Positions 10,475-62,100 of a stretch of 64,000 bases of DNA are shown here, piece after piece. The position numbers and the translations under genes are program-made. The number at the start of each line of letters is the position of its first letter. The stretch's first letter is position 1. The stretch comes from Ignavibacteriota bacterium (GTDB lineage: Bacteria > Bacteroidota > Ignavibacteria > UBA10030 > UBA6906): NCBI GenBank assembly GCA_963801355.1, contig CAWDEM010000004.1, positions 138,903-202,902 of the forward strand. The letters are read 5' to 3'. Below the pieces are notes generated by a model. That model made no database searches and was not told the origin of the DNA. It saw nothing but the letters and a program-made list of their open reading frames with translations.

Positions 10475-12841
10475 GTGAAGCACAGCATTTTCTTCCGTAG
10501 CATCATTTTCTTCAGTCTTTGCATCGTTGCGGCTGCATTTCTCGCGGGCATCAATGGATGCGCTCCAAAACAGCAGGAATCCATAGTCGCGACAATCGGC
10601 ACGAACGCCATAACGCTCGCGGACTTCGAGAACATGTATACCCGCAGCAACGGGGATGCCAGCATTGATACTACCGTCAGCCAGGAGGAGCGGGAGCGGT
10701 TCCTTGATCTCATGGTCAAATACCGCCTGAAGCTTACGGACGCCTACCGCCAGGGATTGGACAAACGCCCCGAAGTACAGGGCGAAATCAATCAGTACCG
10801 GGGAAGTCTTGCCGCGTCCTATCTCACCGACCGCGAGCTTGTCGTCCCCAGCGTACGGAGGATGTACGACCGCAGCCTCGAAGAGATACGTGCAAGCCAC
10901 ATCCTGCTGACGTTCCGTCAGGATGCCAAGGCGGAAGACTCCGCAGCGGTGTACAAGCAGGCTCAGGAAATCATCACGGAAATTAAAGCCGGCAAAGATA
11001 TCGGTGAGCTCGCACTCCAATTCTCGCAGGATCCCAGCGCGAAGCAGAACAAGGGCGACCTGTACTATTTCTCCGTCGGACGCATGGTACCGGAATTTGA
11101 AGATGCGGCCTTTGCGCTGAAGACCGGCGAAGTTACTTCAACACCCATCAAGACCCGTTTCGGGCTGCACATCATCAAGGTAACGGACCGGAAACCCTCG
11201 CGGGGCGAGCTCCAGGCAAGCCACATCATGATCCGGTTTGCCGACCAGAACCCGTCGCCGGAGGATACGGCAAAGGCGTATGCAAAGATACTGGCGATCC
11301 AGGACAGCATAGCGAAGGGCATTCCCTTTGAAGAGCTGGCAGCGCGGAATTCCGAAGATGGTGGATCCAGCGGCCGCGGAGGTGATCTCGGTTGGTTTTC
11401 GCGCGGACGGTGGCCGCAACCGTTCGATGAAGCAGCATTCCGGCTGACACCCGGCAAGACATCCCCCGTTGTCCGTACCTTATACGGTTATCACATCATC
11501 TACTGTACCAATGCCCGGCCCCCGAAATCCTTCGAGGAAGCCAAACAGGATTTCCAGAACCTTTATCAACAGCAACGCTTCCAGTCGGACTACGCGGCAT
11601 TCACGGCAAAGATCAAGAAGGAAACCCAATTTGTCCGGAAGGATTCCGTGATCGCCCTTTTCGTCTCCGGGTTCGACTCCACAAAAGCCGTCCGCGACAG
11701 TGCCTGGGGTTCGACCCTGCCCGGCGATTTTGGCAGGGCAACAATGTTCACGGTGCTCGGACGCCCGATCATCGTGGATACGGTGATCGCCATGATCAAG
11801 AGCCACGTTGAATGGTCGACCACCTCCCTTCACCGTGTGTCTCTCGCACCGATCGTCGACAAGCTGGCCGACCAGGTGCTCTTTGAAGGAAAGTCGGAGC
11901 TGCTCGAGAAGCAGGATCCAAAATTCGCCGCGTTGCTGCGCGAGTACCGGGAAGGAATCCTTCTCTATCAGATCGAGCAGGATCAGGTGTGGAACAAGGT
12001 CACGACATCCGACTCGCTGCTGCGCCTCTATTTCGCAGACCACCGGGACAAGTTTGTTTTCCCGGACCGCGTACTCTTCACCGATATTCGTGCCGTTTCC
12101 AATGCCAATGCGGAGATCATCCGACAGAAGCTGCTGGCCGGAATGACCATGGAACAGGTTGCACGTGAAGATTCCATTCGCATGGCCGCAAAGGTGGCCT
12201 TCCAGCTCCGTTTTGGTGCGGGGAAAACAACGCTGCCGGCGGCACAGACGGGAACGGTGGCCTCCGTCGGATCATTCCTGACGAAGGAGAAGTCAACGCG
12301 TGTCATGATTGCAGCGTATGCAGACACGAGCACGCGCAAGTCCAAAAACGAAGCCCTCGCAAAGCAGCGTCTGGAGCTTGTGAAGGGGTTGCTGATGAAG
12401 ACGCACGGCATTGCATCCGACCGCATCATCACGGAGATCCGGCCGCGTAATTTTGCAGCCGCGAAGCAGCGGGATACCGCCGGGGTCCTGCAGCTTCTGG
12501 ATGTGCAGATACTCGGTCTGCAGCCGCTGGTGATAGGCCCGTTGGAAACCTTACTGGCTGCTCCCGCTGCGGACGACCGCGCGAAGCAGGCGGATTCTCT
12601 CGCCGTGGGCGGCTATTCGGCGCCGTTCTTCCACAAAGCGGGGTTTGTCGTTGTCCGTAAAGACGGGGTTGATCCGGCCCGGCAGAAGACCTTCGAAGAA
12701 GCGGGCGCCGAAGTCTCAAGTGCATTCCAGGAGTATGAATCAAAGCGCCTTGAAGCCGAATGGCTCAACCGCGTAAAGCAGTACGCACCGGTGATCGAAC
12801 ACAAGGAATTGTTGAAGAACGCCTTTGCAAAGACTCCGTGA
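10475..12841 (+). CDS. Large SurA/PpiD-like lipoprotein with two parvulin PPIase domains and an extra C-terminal chaperone-like module
   Basis: GTG start with AAGGGAG RBS; lipobox LAGINGC; two parvulin cores (ASHILLTF...GLHIIKV and ASHIMIRF...GYHIIYC); SurA-like C-terminal tail. Confidence 0.8.
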   Translation: MKHSIFFRSIIFFSLCIVAAAFLAGINGCAPKQQESIVATIGTNAITLADFENMYTRSNGDASIDTTVSQEERERFLDLMVKYRLKLTDAYRQGLDKRPEVQGEINQYRGSLAASYLTDRELVVPSVRRMYDRSLEEIRASHILLTFRQDAKAEDSAAVYKQAQEIITEIKAGKDIGELALQFSQDPSAKQNKGDLYYFSVGRMVPEFEDAAFALKTGEVTSTPIKTRFGLHIIKVTDRKPSRGELQASHIMIRFADQNPSPEDTAKAYAKILAIQDSIAKGIPFEELAARNSEDGGSSGRGGDLGWFSRGRWPQPFDEAAFRLTPGKTSPVVRTLYGYHIIYCTNARPPKSFEEAKQDFQNLYQQQRFQSDYAAFTAKIKKETQFVRKDSVIALFVSGFDSTKAVRDSAWGSTLPGDFGRATMFTVLGRPIIVDTVIAMIKSHVEWSTTSLHRVSLAPIVDKLADQVLFEGKSELLEKQDPKFAALLREYREGILLYQIEQDQVWNKVTTSDSLLRLYFADHRDKFVFPDRVLFTDIRAVSNANAEIIRQKLLAGMTMEQVAREDSIRMAAKVAFQLRFGAGKTTLPAAQTGTVASVGSFLTKEKSTRVMIAAYADTSTRKSKNEALAKQRLELVKGLLMKTHGIASDRIITEIRPRNFAAAKQRDTAGVLQLLDVQILGLQPLVIGPLETLLAAPAADDRAKQADSLAVGGYSAPFFHKAGFVVVRKDGVDPARQKTFEEAGAEVSSAFQEYESKRLEAEWLNRVKQYAPVIEHKELLKNAFAKTP

Positions 12842-13700
12842 CGGGTGGTGGCGAGGACTGGCGGCGGCACTCGCGCTGACGCTGGCCGCATGCGGCCGGG
12901 AGGGCGAACGCAGCGGATATGTTGCCCGCGTCAACAGCGTAGTGTTGACCGACGCTGATATTGCGCATCAGCGCGACTCTGTGGGCGAAGCGGGTGCCGC
13001 ATCTAAAGAATACATCAACGACTGGGTCGTCAACGAGCTGTTGTACCAGGAGGCCGAACGGCGCGGCGTGACCGACGATCCATCGTTCCGCGACCAGCTC
13101 GAGGCCATGCGCAAACGGCTTGCCGTCGCCGCTCTCCTTCAGGAAGCGGTGTATGCGAAAGTTGACAGCACCGAGCTCCCGGAAGACTCCGTCACCCAGG
13201 CCTACACGCGCTCGGGCCAGGCATTCCTGTTGCGCGAAGATATCACGCTTGCGAGTTATGTCCTCTTCCGCACCCGGGAAGCCGCCAACGCATTCCGCGC
13301 CACCCTCATGCGCGGCACCCCATGGCAGACCTCGCTGACCGAACTCCAGGCAAAACCTTCAAAGGAACCTCCCGTCATCCAGTCGGCGGACCATCAGTAC
13401 TTCTCCAGTGCAACGCTGTACCCCGAGGAGCTCTGGAAACTGGCCCGCTCTCTCGCCCGTGAAGAGGTCTCCCCTCTACTTCGTACCAATGAGGGGTACG
13501 TTGTCCTTCGCACACACCAGAATTTCCGTCAGGGGGAACTTCCGCCGTTCGCGTACGCACGTGCCGAGGTGCGGGAACGTCTCCTGATGGACCTCCGTCG
13601 CGCCCGCTACGAGGAGTTCCTCGGTGTGGTCCGCAAACGGCATACCATCGACATTCGTGAACCACAGGCTGGACCTGATCCGTCCGCCTCACAGGAGTAA
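12825..13700 (+). CDS. SurA-N-like periplasmic chaperone lipoprotein, with at most a degenerate parvulin domain
   Basis: TTG start overlapping the upstream gene by 17 nt; signal plus lipobox (LALTLAACG); SurA N-domain-like (INDWVVNELLYQEAERRGV). Confidence 0.6.
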   Translation: MQRLRDGWWRGLAAALALTLAACGREGERSGYVARVNSVVLTDADIAHQRDSVGEAGAASKEYINDWVVNELLYQEAERRGVTDDPSFRDQLEAMRKRLAVAALLQEAVYAKVDSTELPEDSVTQAYTRSGQAFLLREDITLASYVLFRTREAANAFRATLMRGTPWQTSLTELQAKPSKEPPVIQSADHQYFSSATLYPEELWKLARSLAREEVSPLLRTNEGYVVLRTHQNFRQGELPPFAYARAEVRERLLMDLRRARYEEFLGVVRKRHTIDIREPQAGPDPSASQE

Positions 13701-13703
13701 TGC

Positions 13704-14984
13704 ATGTTCCGTTCCGTCATCCCGCGCGCCCTTGTCCTTTCTCTGGCAGTGTGCGGCGTGTCTCCCGCACCGGCACAGGTGCTCGACCGCGTTATCGCCG
13801 TCGTGGAAAACGATCCCATTCTTGAATCGGAGTTGAACGCCCAGATCCAGTTCTTTGCTCTGTCCAACCGCATGGATCCAAAAGCTCCGGGTGTACACGA
13901 TCAGGTACTGCAGGCGATGGTCAACGAGAAACTGATTGTGGCCAAGGCAATCCAGGACAGCGTGACCGTCACCGATGAAGAAGTCCAGCAGCAGCTTGAA
14001 GCGGCAATTCAGCAACGTGTGCAGCAAGTCGGCTCCGAGGCGCGGTTGGAAGAGATGTACGGTATGCCCTTGAGCAGAATCAAGCGGGAATACCGGGACG
14101 AAATGCGGAAGAACCTCCTTGCACAGAAATTGCAGCAACAACGCTTCGGTGCGACGCAGATCGGCCGCTATGAGGTGGAGGAATTCTTCCGGACCTATCG
14201 CGACAGTCTCCCCCGCGTCCCTGAAGAAGTGGAACTCTCCCATATCTTCATCAAACCCCGGTTCGGCGCCGCCGAACGCACCGCCGCATACAAGCGCATG
14301 CAGGCATTGCTCGACAGCATCAATGCCGGTGTCGACTTCGCGGAGCTGGCCAAGCGTCATTCGGAAGACCCTGGCTCGGGACCGCAAGGCGGCAATCTCG
14401 GCCTCGTCCGGCGTGGACAGTTTGTCAAAGACTTTGAAAGCGCCGTCTTCGGCTTGGGCGAGGGACAGGTCTCCGGCATTGTGGAGACCGAGCTCGGGCT
14501 GCATATCATCCAGCTGCTGGAACGCCGTGGCGATGCCGTGCGTGCACGCCATATTCTGTTGCGCATTCAACGCACGGACTCCGGGGACAGCAGCACCGTC
14601 GCTCTCCTGGATTCTCTACGCAGTGCCGCTCTCGCGGGCAGCGACTTCGGCGTACTGGCAAAGAAATTCTCTGAAGACAAGGAGACAAACCTGATCGGGG
14701 GCATGCTGGGCGCACTTGATCTGGAGCAGCTTGATAAGAGCTGGTTCACCGCCGTGGCACCGCTCTCACCGGGCGAGATCAGCAAGCCCGAAAAACTCCC
14801 GGTGGGCAGCTCGTACGGCTATCATATCGTGCTTCTGCGCAAACGCACACCGGCTCATGAAATGACCCTCGAGCAGGATTACCACAAAATCGAGGCACTT
14901 GCGCTGAACTATAAGAGATCAAAGGACTACCAGAGCTGGCTTGATGATATCCGGAAGAGTATCTACTGGAAGATCTATCCCTAA
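13704..14984 (+). CDS. surA: Peptidyl-prolyl cis-trans isomerase SurA (two parvulin domains)
   Basis: AGGAG RBS; signal peptide; SurA-N plus two parvulin cores (SHIFIKP...GLHIIQLL and ARHILLRI...GYHIVLL). Confidence 0.85.
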   Translation: MFRSVIPRALVLSLAVCGVSPAPAQVLDRVIAVVENDPILESELNAQIQFFALSNRMDPKAPGVHDQVLQAMVNEKLIVAKAIQDSVTVTDEEVQQQLEAAIQQRVQQVGSEARLEEMYGMPLSRIKREYRDEMRKNLLAQKLQQQRFGATQIGRYEVEEFFRTYRDSLPRVPEEVELSHIFIKPRFGAAERTAAYKRMQALLDSINAGVDFAELAKRHSEDPGSGPQGGNLGLVRRGQFVKDFESAVFGLGEGQVSGIVETELGLHIIQLLERRGDAVRARHILLRIQRTDSGDSSTVALLDSLRSAALAGSDFGVLAKKFSEDKETNLIGGMLGALDLEQLDKSWFTAVAPLSPGEISKPEKLPVGSSYGYHIVLLRKRTPAHEMTLEQDYHKIEALALNYKRSKDYQSWLDDIRKSIYWKIYP

Positions 14985-15002: not shown

Positions 15003-16013
15003 GTGAGCACCGCTCCCGCCTCATCTACAGCCACGGGTGATGTCGCAGACGCGCGCCGGCTGAACGATGCGTATGATAAGCTGCGGAATGAGATCGCCAA
15101 GGTCATTGTCGGCCAGGAAACCATTGTCGAACACATGCTGATTGCCCTCCTGGCCCGCGGCCACTGCCTGCTGGTCGGTGTGCCGGGTCTCGCCAAAACA
15201 CTCCTCATACGCACGCTGGCGCAAGTCCTCGATCTGAAATTCAACCGGATTCAGTTCACACCTGACTTGATGCCCAGCGACATCACCGGAACGGAGATTA
15301 TCGAAGCACATCCGGGATCCGGCGCGAAGGAATTCCGGTTCATTCGCGGCCCTCTGTTCGCAAACATCGTGCTGGCCGACGAAATCAACCGTACCCCGCC
15401 CAAGACACAGGCGGCTCTCCTGGAAGCAATGCAGGAACACCGCATCACCGCGGCGGGAACCACATACACCCTTGATGAGCCGTTCTTCGTCCTGGCAACG
15501 CAAAACCCGATCGAGCAGGAAGGCACCTATCCCCTGCCCGAAGCCCAACTCGATCGCTTCATGTTCAACCTCTGGCTCGAGTATCCCTCCCCCGCAGAGG
15601 AAGTCCAGATCGTCAAGTCCACAACCGGACTCCACGACCCCGCACCCGGCCATATCCTGACGGGACAGCAAATTACCCGGTTTCAGGACCTGGTCCGGCG
15701 GGTACCTGTCGCAGATAATGTTCTGGAGTACGCGGTCAAACTCGTAGGAACCACACGCCCGGGGGCAGCCCAGTCACCGCAGTTTGTCAAGGATTGGATC
15801 CGCTGGGGTGCCGGACCACGGGCTTCCCAGTACCTGATTCTCGGCGCAAAAACCCGTGCACTCCTGACCGGGCGCCATACCCCCGATATCGATGACGTGC
15901 GCTTCATGGCCGGCCCCACACTCCGCCATCGTCTCGTCACGAATTTCAACGCCGAAGCAGACGGCGTCACCGCTATTGAGATCGTGGACCGGCTCGTTCG
16001 CGAGCTGCCCTGA
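15003..16013 (+). CDS. MoxR-family AAA+ ATPase (AAA_3)
   Basis: Walker A GVPGLAKT; Walker B/DEINR LADEINRTPPKTQAALLEAMQE, characteristic of MoxR. Confidence 0.9.
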   Translation: MSTAPASSTATGDVADARRLNDAYDKLRNEIAKVIVGQETIVEHMLIALLARGHCLLVGVPGLAKTLLIRTLAQVLDLKFNRIQFTPDLMPSDITGTEIIEAHPGSGAKEFRFIRGPLFANIVLADEINRTPPKTQAALLEAMQEHRITAAGTTYTLDEPFFVLATQNPIEQEGTYPLPEAQLDRFMFNLWLEYPSPAEEVQIVKSTTGLHDPAPGHILTGQQITRFQDLVRRVPVADNVLEYAVKLVGTTRPGAAQSPQFVKDWIRWGAGPRASQYLILGAKTRALLTGRHTPDIDDVRFMAGPTLRHRLVTNFNAEADGVTAIEIVDRLVRELP

Positions 16014-16018
16014 GCACC

Positions 16019-18187
16019 ATGCCGCAGATCGATCTCCGCCTGGGCATACCACCCGCTCTGGCACTCATTGCTGTCATCGCTGCGGTGGCCCTCGCAGTGC
16101 TCTTTTACCGCACGACCATACCCCCTGCACCACGCCCGAAGCGTCTCCTGCTGGCAACTCTTCGCGGCCTCGCCCTGGCACTCCTCGCTTTTCTTCTCTT
16201 TGATCCGCAACTGCGCCTCACCCTGACGAGAACCGCGGCGCCCGGATTGACGGTACTCGTCGATAACAGCAGGAGCATGTCTATTACCGACCGTGACGGC
16301 ACCAGGAGCGACATTGTGCGCACGATCCTCCGATCATCCGTGCTCGAAGCGTTGCATCAGCGCGCACTGGTCACCATCGTTCCATTCGGGGCACGAGTGC
16401 GTACAGGCGAAGGTCTGACGGCGGATTCACTTTCGTTTACGGAAGACGGCACGGATATCGCCGGTGCACTTTCTGCAGTCCAGCAGAACGACCGCGCACT
16501 GCACAGCAACGCCGTGCTCCTGCTCACTGACGGTATTGTCACGCTGGGACAAAATCCCGTGGGCCCCGCCTCCGCATTCCCTGTCCCCATCACCACGGTC
16601 GGTATCGGCGACAGCAGCGAACAACGCGACGTCGCGGTGCAACGCATCGGCGCAAACGCAGTGGTCTACACCGGCGTACCGACGCCGGTCCAGGTGATGG
16701 TCCATGCAAGCGGCTATCAGAATGAACGCATCGAGGTCTCTCTCACTGACGGGACAACCTCTGCCGGGCGGACCACGCTGACACTCGAACCGGGGTCGCA
16801 CGATTATGCGGTGCCGCTTACCTGGACGCCCGCCGTCGAGGGAACACACTCGCTGACAGCCACGGTGAGCAGTCTTCCCGGCGAAGTCACGACGCGGAAC
16901 AATCGCCGAACCATAGCGGTACGGGTCCGCAAAAGCAAGCTGCGTCTCCTCATTATTGCCGGCGGGCCGTCATACGATCTTGCATTCTTCCGTACCACTG
17001 CACAGGAAGACCCTGCCGTCGCCGTTTCCGCCTTCACACAAACACCCGCGGGTACCTTCTATGAGGGACTCCTGACACAGGCGGCGCTGGACTCGGCGGA
17101 TTGCCTGGTCCTGATCGGCATGCCCACCACGTTCACACATCCCTCAACGATTGATGCCGTGGCCGGCGCGATCAACCGACGGCATCTTCCGTTTCTCTGG
17201 ATCGGGTCGCGCACGGTGGATGTGACGCGCAGCGGCGCACTCGCTGCATTGCTGCCATTCACCGCCACCGGTGCTTCCACTGTGGAACAGGAGATCAGCA
17301 TCCAACCCGTCCCGGCGGAACAGGCATCTCCGCTGCTGGCTCCCATCCAACCGGGGGATCCGTCTCCGTGGCAGCAGCTGCCGCCTATTTTCGCCACACG
17401 CACACAATTCGCTGCAAAAGCCGGCGCAATGGTTCTGGCTACAGCACGAATCCAGAGCGTGATCACTCCATCGCCGGTGCTTATCGTCAGGAGCCAGGGC
17501 GGGCAGCGGTCTATCGCACTTCCGGGGTATGGCATATGGCGCTGGCGGCTCCTGGCACAGAGGTCGCCGGCCGTAGCAGGCTTTTTTCCAAAATTCGTCA
17601 CCAACGTGATCCGGTGGCTCACGGCTCCGGACGACACCGCTCCACTTGTCGTCAAGCCGCTTGCCACGGTGTATGGCCAGGGGGAACCACTTGGATTCGA
17701 AGCGCAGGTGTACGACGTTCAGCAGCGACCCGTGGACGATGCCGAAGTGCGCGTTGTCGTGCAACAACGGAACCAGGCAATCGAAGGCACGCTTGCTTCT
17801 GTGGGGAACGGACGGTATGAGGGAACGCTGCCGGGTCTGGGTGAGGAGGGTGTCTACCGGTATCGTGCCGGCGCGGGAAAAGGAGGGGCTGTACTCGGTG
17901 CGGACAGTGGTGCCGTGCGCGTTGGTGGCACACATGTGGAATTTCGCACAACCCGAACCGAGACTGCTTTGTTGCGCGCCATCGCCGCCCGCTCCGGTGG
18001 TGCGTACCTGAGTCCGGGGGATCTTTCACGATTGCCCGACGAGCTCTCGCGTCAGGGATTTTTCACACCCCGCATTACCACCGAGGAATCGGACCACCAG
18101 ATGCGCTCCTGGCCGTATATTGCTGGAGCAATCGTCCTGCTCCTCGCGCTCGAATGGCTTATCCGGAAGCGGAGCGGCATGCTCTAA
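16019..18187 (+). CDS. BatA-N / vWA-domain membrane protein (two N-terminal TM helices, vWA with MIDAS motif DNSRS, about 450-aa beta-rich region, C-terminal TM helix)
   Basis: 722 aa; TM helices LALIAVIAAVALAVLF and LLLATLRGLALALLAFLLF; LTVLVDNSRSMSITD; C-terminal WPYIAGAIVLLLALEWLI; sits immediately after moxR. Confidence 0.8.
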   Translation: MPQIDLRLGIPPALALIAVIAAVALAVLFYRTTIPPAPRPKRLLLATLRGLALALLAFLLFDPQLRLTLTRTAAPGLTVLVDNSRSMSITDRDGTRSDIVRTILRSSVLEALHQRALVTIVPFGARVRTGEGLTADSLSFTEDGTDIAGALSAVQQNDRALHSNAVLLLTDGIVTLGQNPVGPASAFPVPITTVGIGDSSEQRDVAVQRIGANAVVYTGVPTPVQVMVHASGYQNERIEVSLTDGTTSAGRTTLTLEPGSHDYAVPLTWTPAVEGTHSLTATVSSLPGEVTTRNNRRTIAVRVRKSKLRLLIIAGGPSYDLAFFRTTAQEDPAVAVSAFTQTPAGTFYEGLLTQAALDSADCLVLIGMPTTFTHPSTIDAVAGAINRRHLPFLWIGSRTVDVTRSGALAALLPFTATGASTVEQEISIQPVPAEQASPLLAPIQPGDPSPWQQLPPIFATRTQFAAKAGAMVLATARIQSVITPSPVLIVRSQGGQRSIALPGYGIWRWRLLAQRSPAVAGFFPKFVTNVIRWLTAPDDTAPLVVKPLATVYGQGEPLGFEAQVYDVQQRPVDDAEVRVVVQQRNQAIEGTLASVGNGRYEGTLPGLGEEGVYRYRAGAGKGGAVLGADSGAVRVGGTHVEFRTTRTETALLRAIAARSGGAYLSPGDLSRLPDELSRQGFFTPRITTEESDHQMRSWPYIAGAIVLLLALEWLIRKRSGML

Positions 18188-54837: not shown

Positions 54838-56022
54838 GTGATCGAACTGGACAATGGATTCGATCGTGGAGCAAAAATCCGCGTGGTCGGTGTAGGCGGC
54901 GGTGGCGGCAACGCCGTCAACAGTATGATCAAGAAAGGGTTGCACGGTGTGGACTTCTTCGCGGTCAACACCGATGTCCAGGCCCTGCAAAGGAACCAGG
55001 CACCGAACAAGATACAAATCGGCAAGAACCTAACCCACGGTCTGGGTGCGGGCGCCGATCCGACGATCGGGTACCGCGCGGTGGAGGAAGACCGCGAAGA
55101 GATCGCCCGCGCCTTGACCGGGAGCGATATGGTATTTGTGACCGCCGGCATGGGAGGCGGCACGGGAACCGGCGGAGCCCCGCTCGTGAGCAACATCGCG
55201 AAGAGCCTGGGTGCTCTGGTCGTGGGTATTGTCACCCGCCCCTTCCAGTGCGAAGGCAAGAAACGTACGGGACAGGCCGATCAGGGCATTGACGAGTTGC
55301 GCAAGCAGGTGGACACCCTCATCGTCATCCCGAATCAGAAACTGTTGTCGATCGTAGAACGCCGCACGCCGCTGACCGAAGCATTTGACATTGCCAACAG
55401 CGTGCTGTACGGCGCCACACGCGGCATCTCGGAACTCATTACGGTTCCCGGCTTGATCAATGTGGACTTCGCCGATGTCCGGACCATCATGCGGGAGATG
55501 GGTGATGCCGTCATGGGCACAGGAGAGGCCACGGGAGAAAACCGGGCAACGGAAGCCGCACATATGGCGATCTCCAGCCCGCTCCTGGATGATGTTTCCA
55601 TCAGCGGTGCCCGGGGTGTTCTGGTGAATATCACCGGCGGACCATCGATGGCACTGTATGAGATCGATGAAGCGACCGAGATTATTCACAGCGCCGCCGG
55701 CGATGAGGCAAACGTGATCCTGGGTGCGGTCATTGACGATCAGCTCACGGAAGAGATTATTGTCACCGTCATTGCCACGGGTTTCAATCAGCACGTGCCG
55801 CTGGCGAGTGCGGTGCATCCCGTCGCGCAGAAGTCGGTGCGCCCGATCGAAAGGGTTCCGACAGGTGCAGATGACCTGCAGCTCCTCGATGTTCCGGCCT
55901 ACAAGCGGCGCGGCATCGAATTGAACATTGCGGGAAGCCGTACCGAGCAGGATCCACCGAAAGAGAGAATCGACAAGAGCGATCGGGAAAAGCCGGCGTT
56001 TCTCCGTAAAGTCATGGACTGA
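54838..56022 (+). CDS. ftsZ: Cell division GTPase FtsZ
   Basis: GTG start with AAAGGAGGA RBS; GGGTGTG tubulin signature. Confidence 0.95.
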   Translation: MIELDNGFDRGAKIRVVGVGGGGGNAVNSMIKKGLHGVDFFAVNTDVQALQRNQAPNKIQIGKNLTHGLGAGADPTIGYRAVEEDREEIARALTGSDMVFVTAGMGGGTGTGGAPLVSNIAKSLGALVVGIVTRPFQCEGKKRTGQADQGIDELRKQVDTLIVIPNQKLLSIVERRTPLTEAFDIANSVLYGATRGISELITVPGLINVDFADVRTIMREMGDAVMGTGEATGENRATEAAHMAISSPLLDDVSISGARGVLVNITGGPSMALYEIDEATEIIHSAAGDEANVILGAVIDDQLTEEIIVTVIATGFNQHVPLASAVHPVAQKSVRPIERVPTGADDLQLLDVPAYKRRGIELNIAGSRTEQDPPKERIDKSDREKPAFLRKVMD

Positions 56023-56041
56023 GCAGTGATGATCCACGGAC

Positions 56042-56077
56042 GTGACACTCACCTGCGCCCACGCAGGTGAGTGTCAC
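56042..56077 (+). terminator. Perfect 16-bp stem hairpin (GTGACACTCACCTGCG-ccca-CGCAGGTGAGTGTCAC) 20 nt after the ftsZ stop; likely end of the dcw transcription unit (weak U-tract)
   Basis: Read directly; followed by direct repeats CACCTCACG x2 and several ACGT-containing motifs. Confidence 0.45.
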
Positions 56078-56181
56078 CTCACGTCTCCACGTCACCTCAC
56101 GGCTTTACGTCGCATTGCGTTTCTACGTAACCTTCCGTCTCTTCCGGTTGCTTCTTCCTCCCGACTTTTCTACTTTTCCTC

Positions 56182-56856
56182 ATGATTCGCACGCTATTTT
56201 TCTGTGTTCTCCTCTTCTGTTGTGCCGCCGAGGTGGTGCAGACCCAGACGGGAACGCCCGCCAGCGCCGTCCGCATCGGCCGCGTGAAGTACGCCGGGGG
56301 AGGCGATTGGTACAACGACCCGTCCGCCGAGGTGAACCTCCTCGCGTTCGTGCGTCAGCACGCGGGTATCGATGTCGATCCGACATACACGCCGGTGGAC
56401 ATCGGCAGCGAGCAGATCTTTTCGTTTCCGATCCTGTTCATGACGGGACACGGAAATATTGCGTTGACCGGGAAGGACCTGGAGAACCTGCGCACGTACC
56501 TGCAAAACGGAGGGTTCCTCTACGCCGACGACGACTACGGCATGGACAAATCCTTCCGGCGTGAACTCCACCGCGCGTTTCCGGACCGGGATCTTGTGGA
56601 ACTCCCATTCTCGTTCGGGCTCTATCACACGCCGTTCTCCTTCTCTGCGGGCCCTCCGAAAACCCATAAGCACGATGAACACCCCCCCCGTGCCTACGGC
56701 CTGTTCCATGAAGGACGCCTGATTGTGCTGTATACGTATGAGAGCAATCCCTCGGACGGGTGGGCGGATCCCGAAGTGCACGGCGACCCGCCCGACAAAC
56801 GGGAAGAGGCGCTCCGATTCGGCATGAACATTATCATGTGGGCCCTGACCCATTGA
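56182..56856 (+). CDS. DUF4159-like protein with N-terminal signal / TM
   Basis: 224 aa; hydrophobic N-terminus LFFCVLLFCCAA; family call from memory (typical members neighbour MoxR / DUF58 / vWA genes). Confidence 0.7.
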   Translation: MIRTLFFCVLLFCCAAEVVQTQTGTPASAVRIGRVKYAGGGDWYNDPSAEVNLLAFVRQHAGIDVDPTYTPVDIGSEQIFSFPILFMTGHGNIALTGKDLENLRTYLQNGGFLYADDDYGMDKSFRRELHRAFPDRDLVELPFSFGLYHTPFSFSAGPPKTHKHDEHPPRAYGLFHEGRLIVLYTYESNPSDGWADPEVHGDPPDKREEALRFGMNIIMWALTH

Positions 56857-56857
56857 G

Positions 56858-59800
56858 GTGCTGACACACCACATGTCTACCGGTATCAATAGCATTCTGA
56901 GCCGATTTGCCGATGTTCGCCGTCGGGACAATGGCGTGCGATCCATCAGCGGGCTGCTGTTTGCCCTTGCGCTCATCATTGCCGCGATCGTGGTCCTGCT
57001 CGGCGTCGAGGCGCTGTTCTGGCTCGATGTGACATCACGCACCGTCATTGCGGTGGTAGTGCTGGCCGGCGGTATCGGTCTCATCCTCTGGCTGGCCGGC
57101 ATCCCGTTCGCCCGCCGTCTTGGCATTCTCCGTTCTGAGACAGATCTCGTGACGGCCGGCCGGATCGGCCGTGTCTTCCCCGAAATTCACGACCGCCTGC
57201 TCAACATCGTTCAATTGGAGCAACAAAAAGCATCAGCGTCCGCTTACTACTCCACAGAACTCATCGATGCAGCTCTGGAAGACACACAAAGGGATGTGGC
57301 GTCCGTGGACTTTTCGGCGATTATTGATCGCGGTCCGCTCCGGACGGCACGCCGTCTCCTGCTGGCGGGGATTGTGCTGGCGGCTCTCGTAGCAGCCATT
57401 CTGCCGCTGGACATCAGCCAGGCGGGGTATCGTCTTGTGCATTTCCGGCAGTCATTCTCCCCGCCGGCGACGCTCGTCCTGCACGTCGAACCCGGGAACC
57501 GTGACGTCGTAAAAGGGGAATCGATTGACGTCATTGTGCGCGCGCTGGGAACGGTGCATGCGCCGGTTGAAGCCCTGCTGCGCCCCGAAGGCCAGGTGAC
57601 GACCGACGTCCACACCCTTGCGGCGCGGGCCGACGGAACCTATCACTACCGTCTGGAGGGAGTCCGCCTGTCGACATCCTATTGGATTCGCTCGGGTGAT
57701 GTCAGGACCGACGAATATCTCCTCCGGGTGCTCGACCGGCCTTCCATCGTGGCGCTCCAGGTCCGGCTGACATATCCCCGGTACACCGGCCTTCCGCCGA
57801 AGGAACTCGATGAAAACATCGGCGATGTCACCGCGCCAGCCGGGAGCATCATGCGGGTCATGCTGCGATCCAGCAAGACGGTAGCCGGCGCAACGGTGTG
57901 GTTTGACGACAGTACACATGTCGCATTGACGAGTGATGCGAAGAGCGCTCAGGGGACGCTGATGCTGCGCGCCGACCGGAAGTACCATCTCGACATCGTG
58001 GACACGGAGGGGCTCCACAATGCGGATCCGATAGAATACGCAATCCGCGTCATTCCCGACGCGCCTCCGTCCATCACCATTGTCACGCCCGGCGTGAATC
58101 TGAATGTCGCAGGCAACGAACGGTTGCCGATGGTGTTTCGCATCACCGATGATTACGGCATCTCGCATCTCCGCCTTGCACACAGGCTTGTGCATTCACG
58201 CTACGAACCGGCCGCGGAGGATTTCACCGTGGTGGAAGTACCCTTCGCACCGGGACCTGGAAACGAATGGATCGCGCCGTTCGCGTGGGAGCTTTCCTCG
58301 CTTCACCTCTCGCCCGAAGATGTTGTCGAGTATCATGCGGAAGTACTTGACAACGACGCCGTGTCCGGACCAAAGGCTGCTGTCAGCGGCACCTATACGC
58401 TCCGGCTCCCGTCCCTTGATGAAGTGTTTGCCGAAGCCGAAAAGGGGCACGAGGCGGCGGAAGGCGATCTTGACAAGGCATTGAAGCAAGCGGAGGATGC
58501 CCGCAAGGAACTTGAAGAGCTGACACGCCAGGTAAAGAGGCAACAGCAAAAACTGAACTGGAACGAGCAGAAGAAAGCGGAGGAACTTGCCAGACGCTAC
58601 GAGGAGATCCGCAAGAAAGTCGACGACGTGCAGCGTACGGTCGACAGCATGCTGGAGGAGATGCAAAAGAACAACGTGCTCTCGCCCGAAACGATGGAGA
58701 AGTATCAGGAGCTCCAGCAGCTGATGGAGCAGATTTCCTCTCCGGAGTTTGCCGAAGCGCTCAAACGGTTGCAGCAGAACATGCAGCAGATGACTCCGGA
58801 GGCGCTCAAACAGGCGCTCGAGAAGTTCCAGTTCTCGGAGGAACAATTCCGGAAGAGCATAGAGCGCACATTGAACCTCCTGAAGCGCATCCAGGTTGAG
58901 CTGAAAGTGGATGAGATGCTGAAGCGCACGGAGTCGATGGAGAAGGCGCAGCAAGGATTGCGTGAAGACCTGGAGCAACATCCTCCGGCGGACAAATCGG
59001 CCGCAGAGCCGAAAGCACGGGAACAAAACGATCTGCGTGACCAGGCGGCGTCCCTGAAACGGGACCTCGCGGCGTTGGAAAAGAATATGGAGGAATTCCC
59101 CGCCGAAATGCCGGTGGAGCAGATGCAGGAGCTGCAAGCACTCCTTGAGAAGAGCGGAATGGAAGCCGCCATGCAGCAGAGCACGGAGCAGATCCGGCAG
59201 GGCGACTATCAGCAGGCCATGCAGCAGCAGGAGAAATCCTCGCAGGCGTTACGTTCGCTCTCACAGGGACTCCAGCGGATGAAACGAGAGATGCTGCAAA
59301 ATCAACAGCGGCAGGTAGTTCAGGAAATGCAGCGTGCGACGCAGGACCTGCTGGAGATCTCGAAGCGTGAAGAAGGGCTGAAGAACGAATCCCGCGGGCT
59401 TGATCCCTCCGCTCAACGCTTTCGGGAAAATGCCCAGCAGCAAATGGATGCGCTGCGTGATCTGGGGAATGTCACCGGCCGTCTGGGTGGGCTTTCCCAG
59501 AAGACCTTCAGCATTTCGCCGGAGATGGGCAAGACGCTCGGCGACGCAATGCGTGCCATGGCACAGGCACTTGAATCCCTCGAGCAACGGAACGGGGCCC
59601 AGGCAGCCCAGCAGCAGGGAGCCGCAATGGGCTCGTTGAACCAGGCCGCGCAACAGTTGCAGGAAGCCGCACAGGGGTTGATGCAGGGTGGCGGACAGGG
59701 CATGGGGATGGCGGGTTTCATGCAACGGCTCCAGCGGCTCTCCGGAATGCAGCAAGGCATCAACGACGCGACACAGGGCCTCAGTCCGCAGCAGGCAGCC

Positions 59801-60229
59801 GAAATGGCGCGGCTTGCCGGGGAACAGGGCATGGTGCGCAAGTCCATGGAGGAGCTTGCCCGTGAGGCCGGCCGGACAGGTGAAATGAGCAAACTCCTGG
59901 GCGATCTGAACCGCGTCGCGCAAGACATGCGGGAGGTCCAGACAGATCTTGCACAGGGCAACGTCAATTCTGAAACGCTCCACAAGCAGGAACGCATTCT
60001 CTCACGCATGCTCGATGCACAGCGCTCCATGCGCGAACGGGACTACGAGAAGCGGCGCAAGTCGGAATCCGGAACGGACGTCGCCCGCCGGAGTCCGGGC
60101 GCGCTGGATCTCTCAACACCGGAAGGCCGGAGCAAGCTCCAGCAAGACCTGCTGCGTGCGCTGGAAGAGGGATACAGCAAAGACTATGAAGAGCTCATCC
60201 GCAAATACTTTGAAGCATTGCAGAAATAA
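56858..60229 (+). CDS. Giant membrane-anchored protein (1123 aa): N-terminal TM helices, about 350-aa beta-rich region, about 600-aa Q/E/K-rich coiled-coil low-complexity C-terminus; DUF4175-like (tentative)
   Basis: GTG at 56858 directly after the DUF4159 stop (alternative ATG at 56873); TM helices LLFALALIIAAIVVLLGV and VIAVVVLAGGIGLILWLAGI; long QQ-rich helical repeats; C-terminus ...YSKDYEELIRKYFEALQK. Confidence 0.8.
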   Translation: MLTHHMSTGINSILSRFADVRRRDNGVRSISGLLFALALIIAAIVVLLGVEALFWLDVTSRTVIAVVVLAGGIGLILWLAGIPFARRLGILRSETDLVTAGRIGRVFPEIHDRLLNIVQLEQQKASASAYYSTELIDAALEDTQRDVASVDFSAIIDRGPLRTARRLLLAGIVLAALVAAILPLDISQAGYRLVHFRQSFSPPATLVLHVEPGNRDVVKGESIDVIVRALGTVHAPVEALLRPEGQVTTDVHTLAARADGTYHYRLEGVRLSTSYWIRSGDVRTDEYLLRVLDRPSIVALQVRLTYPRYTGLPPKELDENIGDVTAPAGSIMRVMLRSSKTVAGATVWFDDSTHVALTSDAKSAQGTLMLRADRKYHLDIVDTEGLHNADPIEYAIRVIPDAPPSITIVTPGVNLNVAGNERLPMVFRITDDYGISHLRLAHRLVHSRYEPAAEDFTVVEVPFAPGPGNEWIAPFAWELSSLHLSPEDVVEYHAEVLDNDAVSGPKAAVSGTYTLRLPSLDEVFAEAEKGHEAAEGDLDKALKQAEDARKELEELTRQVKRQQQKLNWNEQKKAEELARRYEEIRKKVDDVQRTVDSMLEEMQKNNVLSPETMEKYQELQQLMEQISSPEFAEALKRLQQNMQQMTPEALKQALEKFQFSEEQFRKSIERTLNLLKRIQVELKVDEMLKRTESMEKAQQGLREDLEQHPPADKSAAEPKAREQNDLRDQAASLKRDLAALEKNMEEFPAEMPVEQMQELQALLEKSGMEAAMQQSTEQIRQGDYQQAMQQQEKSSQALRSLSQGLQRMKREMLQNQQRQVVQEMQRATQDLLEISKREEGLKNESRGLDPSAQRFRENAQQQMDALRDLGNVTGRLGGLSQKTFSISPEMGKTLGDAMRAMAQALESLEQRNGAQAAQQQGAAMGSLNQAAQQLQEAAQGLMQGGGQGMGMAGFMQRLQRLSGMQQGINDATQGLSPQQAAEMARLAGEQGMVRKSMEELAREAGRTGEMSKLLGDLNRVAQDMREVQTDLAQGNVNSETLHKQERILSRMLDAQRSMRERDYEKRRKSESGTDVARRSPGALDLSTPEGRSKLQQDLLRALEEGYSKDYEELIRKYFEALQK

Positions 60230-60235
60230 CACACC

Positions 60236-61414
60236 ATGCACACCATCTCCTCGATTGCCCGCATGCTGTATAAGAACTATGCCGGCTTCCGTCTGGATCA
60301 CCAGTCGCCGGCGACCTGCGTCCACGCCGGGCTTTGTGCGGAAATGCAGCGTCTCGTCGGCGGCAGCAACGGTCTCCTCACGCAGCGGGAAATCGGCCGG
60401 TCGATAGAGGGACGCAGCATTCATCTTCTCACCGCGGGTTCCGGTCCGCTGAACATTCTGCTCTGGTCGCAAATGCACGGTGATGAATCCACCGCGACAC
60501 TTGCGTTGCTCGACATTGCACACTTCTTCACGCGCGAAAGCCGGCTGCCCTGGGTGGCAAACATACTTCGGTCCCTCTCGGTGCACTGCATCCCCATGGT
60601 CAATCCTGATGGGGCCGAATCCCGCACGCGCTACAATGCCGTCGGCATCGACATCAACCGTGATGCCCGCACTGCTGTCTCCCCCGAGGCCAGGGCGCTG
60701 CGTCAGATCCAGCGGAGCATTGCGCCGGAGTTCGCATTCAACCTGCATGATCAGAACCTTCATTCAGCCGGTGATACAGCACGCGTTGCTGCCCTCGCAT
60801 TACTGGCGCCTCCTCCTGATGAGCAGCGATCCACCCCGCGTGTGCGGCGGCGCGCCATGCGCCTGGGTGCGCTTATCGCAAAAGCGCTCCATCCATTTGC
60901 CGGCGGACACATCACTCGGTACGATGACGCCTACGAACCGCGCGCATTCGGAGATCTCTTTCAGTCTCTGGGGAGCAGTACGCTGCTGATCGAATCGGGC
61001 CACTGGCCGCATGATCCGGAAAAAGCGACGATACGCAAGTTGAACGTCGTGGGAATTCTCACGGCTCTCTGGAGCATCGCCGGCGGTGCGTATGAAGATG
61101 TCGACCTGGATTCCTATACCGGTCTACCCCCCAACGGCCAGCGGATGTTTGACCTGCTGATCAGGGGGGTGGAACTTCGCCATGACAGCGGGTGGTCCGG
61201 TGCGGCTGATCTCGGCGTACTGTACGAGCGTTACGGTGATCGTGCAACCATCAAGGAAATAGGGGATCTCCGGCTGTACGGCGGGCTGGAAGTGCACACC
61301 CTGCGGAAACGTGTTCTCCCCCCGGCCTTGATGCGCGTCGAGAGCAGCATGCAACGCCGGACGCTCTATGATCTCCTGCAAATCTACCGGGCCTCACCCC
61401 CTTCCTGCGCTTGA
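60236..61414 (+). CDS. M14-family zinc carboxypeptidase (murein-peptide amidase / succinylglutamate-desuccinylase-like)
   Basis: Zn-binding HxxE (QMHGDEST); CIPMVNPDG...INRD and LIESGH motifs; start 7 nt after the giant gene's stop. Confidence 0.8.
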   Translation: MHTISSIARMLYKNYAGFRLDHQSPATCVHAGLCAEMQRLVGGSNGLLTQREIGRSIEGRSIHLLTAGSGPLNILLWSQMHGDESTATLALLDIAHFFTRESRLPWVANILRSLSVHCIPMVNPDGAESRTRYNAVGIDINRDARTAVSPEARALRQIQRSIAPEFAFNLHDQNLHSAGDTARVAALALLAPPPDEQRSTPRVRRRAMRLGALIAKALHPFAGGHITRYDDAYEPRAFGDLFQSLGSSTLLIESGHWPHDPEKATIRKLNVVGILTALWSIAGGAYEDVDLDSYTGLPPNGQRMFDLLIRGVELRHDSGWSGAADLGVLYERYGDRATIKEIGDLRLYGGLEVHTLRKRVLPPALMRVESSMQRRTLYDLLQIYRASPPSCA

Positions 61415-61439
61415 CAGTTCCCAAAGTATCGCGTATCAT
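61411..61439 (+). promoter_or_regulatory. Near-consensus sigma70-type promoter TTGACA-17 bp-TATCAT upstream of the ECF sigma gene; the -35 overlaps the M14 stop codon
   Basis: Hexamers and spacing read directly. Confidence 0.5.
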
Positions 61440-61479
61440 TAATGTTCGAGAAGACACTCCCTTTTTTGTGACGGATGCC

Positions 61480-62052
61480 ATGAAGGCCGCAGGCAAGAAC
61501 ACAAAGCAGCGGGAATTTGAGTCCGAGGCCCTTCCACATGCCGACATCCTCTACAACTACGCCCTCCGCATGACCGCCAACGCCGCCGACGCGGATGATC
61601 TGGTGCAGGAAACCTTCCTCAAGGCGTTCCGGTTCTGGGAGAAATACGAAAAAGGGACGAACATCCGTGCGTGGCTGTTCCGCATCATGAAAAACTCGTA
61701 CATCAACCGTTACCGGCGTGAGTCGAAAGAACCTGACACGGTAGATTACGAAGAGGTGCAGAATTTCTACAATACGATCCGCGCCGACTCGGCACCATCC
61801 AGCGACACACAGGAGACGGCGTTCGGACAGCTCCTTGACGATGATGTCGCGACGGCGATTGTCCACCTTCCCGAGGACTTCCGCACAGTGGTCATCCTCT
61901 GCGATATTGAGGGGCTGACCTACGAGGAGATTTCAGAGTTTCTCGCCGTGCCGCTGGGCACCGTGCGTTCACGACTGCATCGTGGAAGGAGCCTCCTCCG
62001 CGTGGAGCTGCTCAATTACGCGAAAGATCGTGGGTACGCTCCAAGGGATTAA
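61480..62052 (+). CDS. ECF-type (sigma-24 family) RNA polymerase sigma factor
   Basis: Region 2 (DLVQETFLKAFRFWEKY...AWLFRIMKNSYINRYRR) and region 4 HTH (LTYEEISEFLAVPLGTVRSRLHRGR); start set at MKAAGKN, downstream of the promoter. Confidence 0.85.
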   Translation: MKAAGKNTKQREFESEALPHADILYNYALRMTANAADADDLVQETFLKAFRFWEKYEKGTNIRAWLFRIMKNSYINRYRRESKEPDTVDYEEVQNFYNTIRADSAPSSDTQETAFGQLLDDDVATAIVHLPEDFRTVVILCDIEGLTYEEISEFLAVPLGTVRSRLHRGRSLLRVELLNYAKDRGYAPRD

Positions 62053-62100
62053 GAACGGCACGCACGGCGTGCCGGCATCCCCCGCCGATATATCGTCGAG

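Follow-up and report, generated by a model that had tools for sequence, protein, structure and literature searches.

The 64,000-nucleotide stretch of Ignavibacteriota bacterium DNA analysed here (contig CAWDEM010000004.1; hereafter the window, with position 1 at its first letter) carries three closely packed genes on its forward strand. They encode a DUF4159 protein (56182-56856; 224 amino acids [aa], ATG start), a very large DUF4175 protein, here called the giant (56858-60229; 1123 aa, GTG start), and an M14 peptidase (60236-61414; 392 aa, ATG start), and they are separated by gaps of 1 nucleotide (nt) and 6 nt, respectively. A preliminary description, made from the sequence alone, had drawn these boundaries and gaps, which were reproduced exactly in the list of open reading frames (ORFs). 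Pfam searches likewise returned the identities it had proposed for the three proteins (E = 9.9e-60, 1.2e-39 and 3.8e-14 in gene order). Use of an alternative in-frame start codon (ATG), six codons inside the giant gene, would widen the first gap to 16 nt. Here we describe this trio and its relation to a MoxR ATPase cluster, part of which is encoded elsewhere in the same window.

The 5′ side of the trio is the end of a division and cell wall (dcw) gene cluster, with murC, ftsQ, ftsA and ftsZ (54838-56022). Beginning 20 nt past the ftsZ stop codon, on the forward strand, is a hairpin (56042-56077) with a perfect 16-base-pair GC-rich stem and a 4-nt loop, without a T-tract. RNA folding of the segment from 56020 to 56185 gives −56.5 kcal/mol (z = −5.8 versus shuffled controls). 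GC-rich hairpins are also present past ftsZ in homologous loci from other genomes (L001, L007, L011, L013, L016 and L017), those of L013 and L016 being followed by T-tracts. The window hairpin is probably an ftsZ terminator, a processing site or an RNA-stability element that sets the trio apart. Inside the trio, a scan for promoters and terminators revealed nothing convincing, and the frequency of matches was not above that in shuffled sequence. The three genes are thus co-directional, with minimal gaps, no convincing internal signals and boundary signals outside. Because of the hairpin upstream, a promoter-like site downstream (see below) and the 1- and 6-nt gaps, the trio looks like one transcription unit delimited at both ends.

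A pyrimidine-rich motif, GGTTGnTTCTTC ... CTTTT..TA..TT, is conserved immediately 5′ of the DUF4159 start codon, both in the window (56080-56181) and in the intergenic regions preceding the DUF4159 genes of L001, L011, L017 and L020. It resembles the TTG/TAnnTTTG promoter of Bacteroidota, but is too near the ATG to be accepted as one. The window also has ACGT-containing repeats (CACGTC/TACGTC/TACGTA) at 56080-56130.

The DUF4159 protein matches the entire profile of its Pfam family (PF13709, positions 1-202 of 202; 201.9 bits, cut-off 25.9). Its hydrophobic N-terminus (aa 1-23) is a signal peptide, and the protein is predicted to be periplasmic, with a domain of the GATase1-like/GIFT class. 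Indeed, a profile of the family compared with the PDB matches 4i66 over the whole domain (E = 7e-25) and, weakly, the GIFT domain of IFT52 (E = 0.013). The first of these is Hoch_4089 from Haliangium ochraceum, a structural genomics entry without an assigned function, and the GIFT domains of IFT52 and GldG are related to DUF4159 at the superfamily level only. The nucleophilic cysteine of class-I amidotransferases is absent from DUF4159, where the elbow reads GGFLYADD, and the family alignment has invariant histidines and aspartates at H90, D117, D122, H162 and H164 (window numbering). A search of 1.8 billion representative proteins revealed 3192 clusters of the family at 50% identity (E <= 1e-3). 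Its members occur standalone, in tandem, or as a C-terminal module fused to an S8 subtilase (as in P0262), to FecR (P0323, with two DUF4159 copies) or to a prenyltransferase-like toroid.

The giant matches the Pfam DUF4175 family (PF13779; 136.5 bits, cut-off 27.3). This match extends over aa 299-1066 and covers profile positions 185-820 of 825, leaving the N-terminal transmembrane (TM) part of the model unmatched. Near the N-terminus of the giant are three TM helices (~30-52, ~62-86 and ~166-188) arranged around a conserved loop of ~80 aa. On the basis of the positive-inside rule, this loop is predicted to be cytoplasmic and aa 190-1123 periplasmic. The preliminary description had singled out the region ~180-520 for structure prediction, and an AlphaFold model of aa 186-545 (mean predicted local distance difference test score [pLDDT] 87.6) reveals three tandem beta-sandwich domains followed by a long helix. 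The sandwiches are Ig-like, span ~aa 205-520 and would lie in the periplasm.

The C-terminal ~580 aa of the giant are Q/E-rich, helical and conserved in length. When aligned, 48 homologues with identities as low as 22% show almost no gaps and share conserved motifs throughout. This favours a specific helical architecture with a set length over a generic coiled coil. A profile of the giant family found no solved relative in the PDB, returning only compositional matches to helical bundles and Ig domains.

The Pfam match of the third protein (Peptidase_M14, PF00246) is restricted to profile positions 5-132, the N-terminal half of the model. Nonetheless, all of the residues that define the family are present, including the HxxE motif (H81/E84), the second zinc histidine (H171), the catalytic glutamate (E253) and the residues that anchor the substrate (R132 and the N141-R142 pair), and all seven positions are invariant in 47 homologues. 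A topology scan found no signal peptide and no TM segment, and the peptidase is predicted to be cytoplasmic. In its confident AlphaFold model (pLDDT 90.6), the catalytic domain is joined by a C-terminal beta-sandwich (~aa 299-373). Foldseek searches with this model retrieved M14 structures at 14-20% identity, among which the carboxypeptidases CPN, CPM and CPD (N/E subfamily) aligned over the full length and share this order of domains. The bacterial enzymes resembling cytosolic carboxypeptidases (CCP-like; 4b6z, 4a37 and 3k2k) instead carry an N-terminal beta-sandwich that the window protein lacks, although they share with it, and with MpaA, a cytoplasmic location. Assignment as MpaA itself, the murein tripeptide amidase (NF007897), was rejected at 22 bits against an equivalog cut-off of 157. 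The window peptidase instead forms a family of its own, of ~392 aa, seen only behind DUF4159-DUF4175 pairs.

To what extent these genes travel together was assessed in a DUF4159-anchored scan based on a 15-sequence alignment and one genome per GTDB species, which yielded 80 loci from many phyla of the Fibrobacterota-Chlorobiota-Bacteroidota (FCB) group. Neighbouring genes were annotated with profiles and unbiased clustering, and 66 of the loci had enough downstream sequence to be informative. A giant gene directly follows the DUF4159 gene in 49 of these 66, in representatives of Ignavibacteria, Kapaibacteria, Latescibacterota, KSB1, Marinimicrobia, Gemmatimonadota and Calditrichota. The two genes are separated by a median of 7 nt, and in 44 of 59 loci the gap is no longer than 20 nt or is replaced by an overlap; such tight packing is therefore no chance feature. 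Besides the giant, no neighbouring family is shared by more than 18 loci, and ftsZ is upstream of the pair only in the nearest clade of the window. An M14 gene stands behind the giant in two of the 49 pair-anchored loci (L011 and L017). The conserved unit is the DUF4159-DUF4175 pair, and the M14 gene is a clade-restricted addition. Thus, conservation across phyla extends to the pair and not to the trio as a whole.

A gene for a TPR protein follows the giant in nine of the sampled loci, and in L006 one is located nearby on the opposite strand. These proteins are 600-790 aa long, as in L069 (10312-12681) and also in L042, L054, L057, L070 and L072. The N-terminus of the L069 protein scores 94.4, against a cut-off of 90.1, with the TPR model of the Tol-Pal protein CpoB/YbgF. 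Next after it is a gene (L069 12895-14187) for a secreted protein of ~430 aa without a Pfam match, termed c15, whose motif GGFMFAMCSATD recalls the GATase1 nucleophile elbow. The possibility that c15, whose gene comes after those for giant and TPR protein in deep lineages, is a diverged M14 enzyme was ruled out on testing, and its comparison with DUF4159 gave only a short match at the GGF motif (27% probability).

MoxR ATPases of the MRP type and their vWA partners are remodelling or maturation chaperones, as exemplified by NorQ/NorD, RavA/ViaA and CbbQ/CbbO. The window encodes such a MoxR protein on the forward strand at 15003-16013 (AAA_3, E = 1e-63, plus AAA_lid_2), which shares 62% identity with its counterpart in the complete L069 operon. 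It is not adjoining the trio, but is located ~40 kb from it. Directly preceding it on the same strand are three genes for periplasmic chaperones of the peptidyl-prolyl isomerase (PPIase)/SurA type (10475-14984; Pfam), whose products comprise 788 aa (two rotamase domains and an OmpA domain), 291 aa and 426 aa (SurA-like). Following MoxR, also on the forward strand, is a gene (16019-18187) for a 722-aa membrane protein, P722, which has TM helices at both ends (two N-terminal, one C-terminal). P722 matches VWA_2 below the Pfam cut-off (E = 0.002) and carries the metal ion-dependent adhesion site motif DxSxS as DNSRS at aa 82. It is homologous to the 765-aa vWA plus GATase1_like protein of L069 (tblastn, E = 3e-22), and it matches neither BatA (PF07584) nor TIGR02226, despite its two N-terminal TM helices.

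Between the MoxR locus and the trio are dnaA, dnaN, recF, gyrB and gyrA, together with the minimum of the cumulative GC skew (~24-27 kb). Because dnaA/dnaN and the skew minimum coincide there, the two loci are on opposite sides of the likely replication origin. This is the arrangement that the preliminary description had proposed for the MoxR and vWA genes at 15003-18187; the MoxR assignment and the relative positions stand, whereas the vWA domain remains below threshold.

The two loci correspond to halves of a cluster that is continuous in other genomes. In L069, genes on one strand are ordered MoxR-DUF58-BatA_N-vWA/GATase1_like-DUF4159-DUF4175-TPR-c15. A metagenome scan with P722 uncovered L092, where contiguous and co-directional genes encode a GldG-like ABC_transp_aux/GIFT protein, a DUF4340 protein, the three PPIases, MoxR, an S8 peptidase, P722, DUF4159 and DUF4175. 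In L095-97 the order is vWA/GATase-DUF4159-MoxR-DUF58-BatA_N-DUF4175, and in L010 a block of three PPIase genes, MoxR, S8 and P722 adjoins the DUF4159-giant pair in divergent orientation. These arrangements bear out the earlier suggestion that DUF4159 and DUF4175 are tied to MoxR/DUF58/BatA/vWA neighbourhoods and that the system in the window is split.

The PPIase genes connect the two halves as well. They are located directly 5′ of the DUF4159-giant pair in L042, L063, L072 and, in part, L073, and 5′ of MoxR also in L010, L089, L092 and L094. The split of the window is shared by its close relatives L089 (89% identical), L090, L091 and L094. Three of these (L089, L091 and L094) carry the PPIase genes followed by MoxR and P722, and gyrA-gyrB are right after P722 in L089 and L090. 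The DUF4159 gene immediately follows the P722-type gene in L069 and L092. The window pair is the detached distal end of a MoxR envelope cluster, and because both halves are joined at the P722/DUF4159 junction in L092 (and L069), the break can be placed exactly there.

The S8 subtilase encoded between MoxR and P722 in L010 (1476-3581, reverse strand) and L092 (7814-9904, forward strand) carries a C-terminal sorting domain for type IX secretion. These two occurrences and the S8-DUF4159 fusion P0262 imply that a secreted peptidase is a recurrent partner of the system.

Several known systems resemble parts of this cluster. The Bat and MRP-type MoxR operons, known from Bacteroides fragilis (BatI), Riemerella, Leptospira, Borrelia (bb0170-0176) and Francisella, begin with an MRP-type MoxR gene, followed by genes for a BatA-type vWA protein with two TM segments and for DUF58 and TPR proteins. 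L069 is similar, with DUF4159 and DUF4175 in addition. Neither family has been described in the canonical Bat operon (BatA-E), nor is M14 a Bat component, and the window differs further in that its MoxR gene is 40 kb off. Phenotypes of MoxR-DUF58/Bat operons concern stress tolerance and the cell envelope (PMC11834572, PMC5700661). Mutation of the Rhizobium leguminosarum MoxR operon RL3499-RL3502 is reported to alter membrane integrity and cell morphology (cited in PMC3893208 and PMC5700661), and RL3499, RL3500 and RL3501 show growth defects on complex medium (PMC5118466, PMC4255674). This is a broadly conserved operon of MoxR (RL3499), DUF58 (RL3500) and membrane protein genes, with an envelope role of the kind that we propose for the pair. 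It is alphaproteobacterial, has four genes, and includes no M14 gene and no dcw linkage. Its RL3501 and RL3502 products may carry regions resembling DUF4159 or DUF4175.

These observations suggest a history and a role for the trio. The fuller form of the cluster reads three SurA-like PPIases-MoxR-(DUF58-BatA_N, or an S8 peptidase)-vWA/GATase1-like-DUF4159-DUF4175-(TPR-c15). In the lineage of the window it would have broken between the vWA protein and DUF4159, such that the PPIase genes, MoxR and P722 stayed at 10.5-18.2 kb while the pair came to close the dcw cluster, on the far side of the terminator-like ftsZ hairpin. In a narrow clade, the pair would then have gained a co-transcribed gene for a cytoplasmic M14 peptidase. 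The giant, in which a trio of Ig-like domains and a helical bundle of fixed length follow the three TM helices and their small conserved cytoplasmic loop, may act as a periplasmic scaffold that binds the DUF4159 subunit as a non-catalytic interaction module of the GATase1/GIFT type. Together with the MoxR-vWA remodelling ATPase and the SurA-type chaperones, the pair could serve in cell envelope assembly or maintenance. The M14 enzyme most likely would trim C-terminal residues from a cytoplasmic peptide or protein substrate tied to the system, candidates being turnover products of cell-wall peptides or a partner of the cytoplasmic loop of the giant.

Because MoxR/vWA proteins carry out remodelling and MoxR-DUF58 operons have envelope, morphology and stress phenotypes, we infer that the pair forms the periplasmic scaffold end of a complex for envelope assembly or maintenance. 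We assign this explanation as a whole, consisting of a split MoxR cluster, an envelope scaffold and an acquired M14 gene, a probability of roughly 0.6. Its architectural and evolutionary part is very probably correct, and our confidence in the mechanistic reading of the pair is modest.

Several findings weigh against this explanation. Of the 80 DUF4159-anchored loci, only three have a MoxR gene at a distance of 10 kb or less. Detachment is common among the relatives sampled, and the pair may therefore act without MoxR. Moreover, tblastn searches of the 64-kb window with the L069 proteins found no homologues of DUF58, BatA_N, TPR or c15. The invariant histidines and aspartates of DUF4159 could mark a metal-binding or active site, contrary to a non-catalytic role. 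Moreover, hhalign detected no significant similarity between DUF4159 and P722, which leaves a DUF4159-like domain in P722 unsupported and a co-assembly of paralogous GATase1-like domains speculative. The peptidase is predicted to be cytoplasmic while its partners are mostly periplasmic, such that a simple shared-compartment model fails. In addition, Lon and dnaX genes are retained in all M14 loci, and linkage of the peptidase to the pair is not fully separable from inherited synteny. Finally, a literature search found no functional study of the DUF4159 or DUF4175 families, in agreement with the earlier statement that no function is established for this gene set.

The downstream region bears directly on the question of synteny. 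An extracytoplasmic function (ECF) sigma factor ORF (61411-62052, forward strand; Pfam and NCBIfam) follows the M14 gene. Its true start is likely ~61480, because the protein is 190 aa long in relatives. A sigma70-like site (TTGACA-17-TATCAT, 61411-61439) that matches 11 of 12 positions in a promoter scan is in the gap between the M14 gene and this revised start, and lon begins at 62159. The sigma gene thus has a promoter-like site of its own and is followed by lon, as had been described. Synteny in every M14 locus includes Lon-dnaX and runs on to MauE and NHL genes. By contrast, the ECF sigma gene is missing from the P0108 locus. We conclude that the sigma gene is a syntenic neighbour and not a demonstrated part of the system, and that ECF sigma, Lon and dnaX reflect the synteny of the lineage. 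A proteostasis or stress module of M14, ECF sigma and Lon, hinted at in the preliminary description, is not upheld. A GC-rich hairpin (62056-62074) follows the ECF sigma gene, and a TTGACA box is 5′ of lon.

Such far-reaching collinearity raises the possibility that the trio, and notably the M14-ECF sigma-Lon run, is nothing more than inherited gene order, in which only the DUF4159-DUF4175 adjacency is meaningful. The rarity of M14 genes among the species-level pair loci, the separate promoter of the sigma gene and the different compartments predicted for M14 and the pair are all in keeping with this view. However, the trio outlasts rearrangement of its surroundings. All six M14 orthologues examined (61, 57, 50, 49, 49 and 49% identity) directly follow a DUF4159-giant pair, and the linkage of giant and M14 persists without ftsZ upstream (L003 and P0108), without the ECF sigma gene (P0108) and with insertions around Lon (L086). 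The giant-M14 junction is also tight: the genes overlap by 4 nt in L003-L005, and the gap measures 6-12 nt in the window and at the P0108 locus. We regard simple inheritance of gene order as unlikely. In one sub-lineage, giant and M14 are separated by a pair of short ORFs of 57 and 136 aa, neither with a Pfam match (L001 9424-10004; L002 1219-1799); they are absent from the window.

The position of the trio at the end of the dcw cluster raises a different possibility, that the pair, together with M14, is a module for division or cell-wall metabolism in its own right. The giant would be a scaffold linked to the divisome, the peptidase an MpaA-like enzyme that recycles murein peptide, and MoxR irrelevant in this lineage. 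ftsZ is directly upstream not only in the window but also in L001, L005, L007, L009, L011, L013, L016, L017, L020, L028, L086 and L087. Yet this adjacency is limited to the nearest clade and interrupted by the strong hairpin, and it is gone from two loci that keep the trio (L003 and P0108); most pair loci have unrelated genes upstream. The best NCBIfam match of the peptidase is indeed MpaA, although its score falls far below the cut-off given above, and the TPR protein behind the L069 giant exceeds that of the Tol-Pal CpoB/YbgF model.

A further link to division is offered by AdvA, an essential division protein of Acinetobacter baumannii with two TM helices, which carries a DUF4175 annotation in its first ~200 residues (PMC7481262). 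However, AdvA matches the N-terminal TM part of the DUF4175 model and the giant matches positions 185-820, such that the two proteins correspond to different parts of the profile and their common annotation does not establish homology. On balance, a division or cell-wall module seems quite improbable. A related proposal, in which the pair is independent of MoxR in this clade and forms a dcw-linked scaffold whose cytoplasmic loop recruits M14, thereby coupling the trimming of cytoplasmic peptides, such as murein peptides, to septal or envelope growth, strikes us as more doubtful still. If true, Ignavibacteria-type bacteria would possess a division or envelope factor that has so far gone unrecognised, and both DUF families would gain their first functional handle.

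A third alternative holds that DUF4159 and DUF4175 constitute a periplasmic sensor feeding envelope-stress signalling through an ECF sigma factor or a two-component system. A FecR domain, the periplasmic sensor portion of anti-sigma factors, is fused to two DUF4159 modules in P0323. An ECF sigma gene is present behind the trio, and a zf-HC2 anti-sigma gene follows it in L001, L005, L086 and L087. In six Ignavibacteriaceae loci (L021, L029, L032, L037, L040 and L046), two genes of the c2 cluster follow the giant; the one member scanned, from L037, is a PAS-HisKA histidine kinase, and a gene of ~112 aa comes next in several of these loci. Nevertheless, signalling neighbours vary by clade and are missing from most loci, and the anti-sigma gene is lacking in the window as well as in L003 and L004. 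Furthermore, the fusion partners of DUF4159 are numerous and unrelated to one another, S8 and prenyltransferase-like toroids among them. A sensory role therefore appears highly improbable.

A search of PADLOC defence models gave no match for DUF4159, the giant, M14 or P722, and only a non-significant one for MoxR (DolB, E = 0.009). On this basis, an anti-phage defence role for the trio, MoxR and P722 was rejected.

Both DUF4159 and DUF4175 are large and widespread families, the former with more than 3,000 clusters. In several pathogens, the MoxR/Bat-type clusters to which they belong have effects on stress tolerance, morphology and virulence. These clusters had been recognised before, and the two DUF families had been catalogued but not studied. 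What is new is the pair as a conserved core, its wider neighbourhood (the SurA-type trio, S8, TPR and c15), the exact split point and the clade-specific M14 gene. The minimal conserved unit comprises a secreted subunit resembling GATase1/GIFT domains and a membrane-anchored giant with Ig-like domains and a helical region of fixed length. Natural variants in which the cluster is split or joined offer a means of examining any dependence of the pair on the MoxR ATPase. Current views are not overturned by these findings, which instead sharpen a long-standing unknown into testable pairwise hypotheses.

DUF4159 genes also occur without a giant. In the Balneolales loci L052, L055, L064, L065, L067 and L068, a lone DUF4159 gene without DUF4175 has genes for a TonB-dependent receptor and a DUF4249 protein on its 5′ side, and a glyoxalase-family gene is next in five of the six. 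This is a different context and possibly a paralogous one. A search of PLSDB identified another lone representative (L088), 41% identical to the window protein, on plasmid pCRULAC1 of Corynebacterium crudilactis (NZ_CP015623.1, 129740-130357). It adjoins a dihydrofolate reductase gene within an antibiotic-resistance mosaic that includes IS26, aph and sul2, which offers no functional clue, and was presumably carried over from an FCB-group donor.

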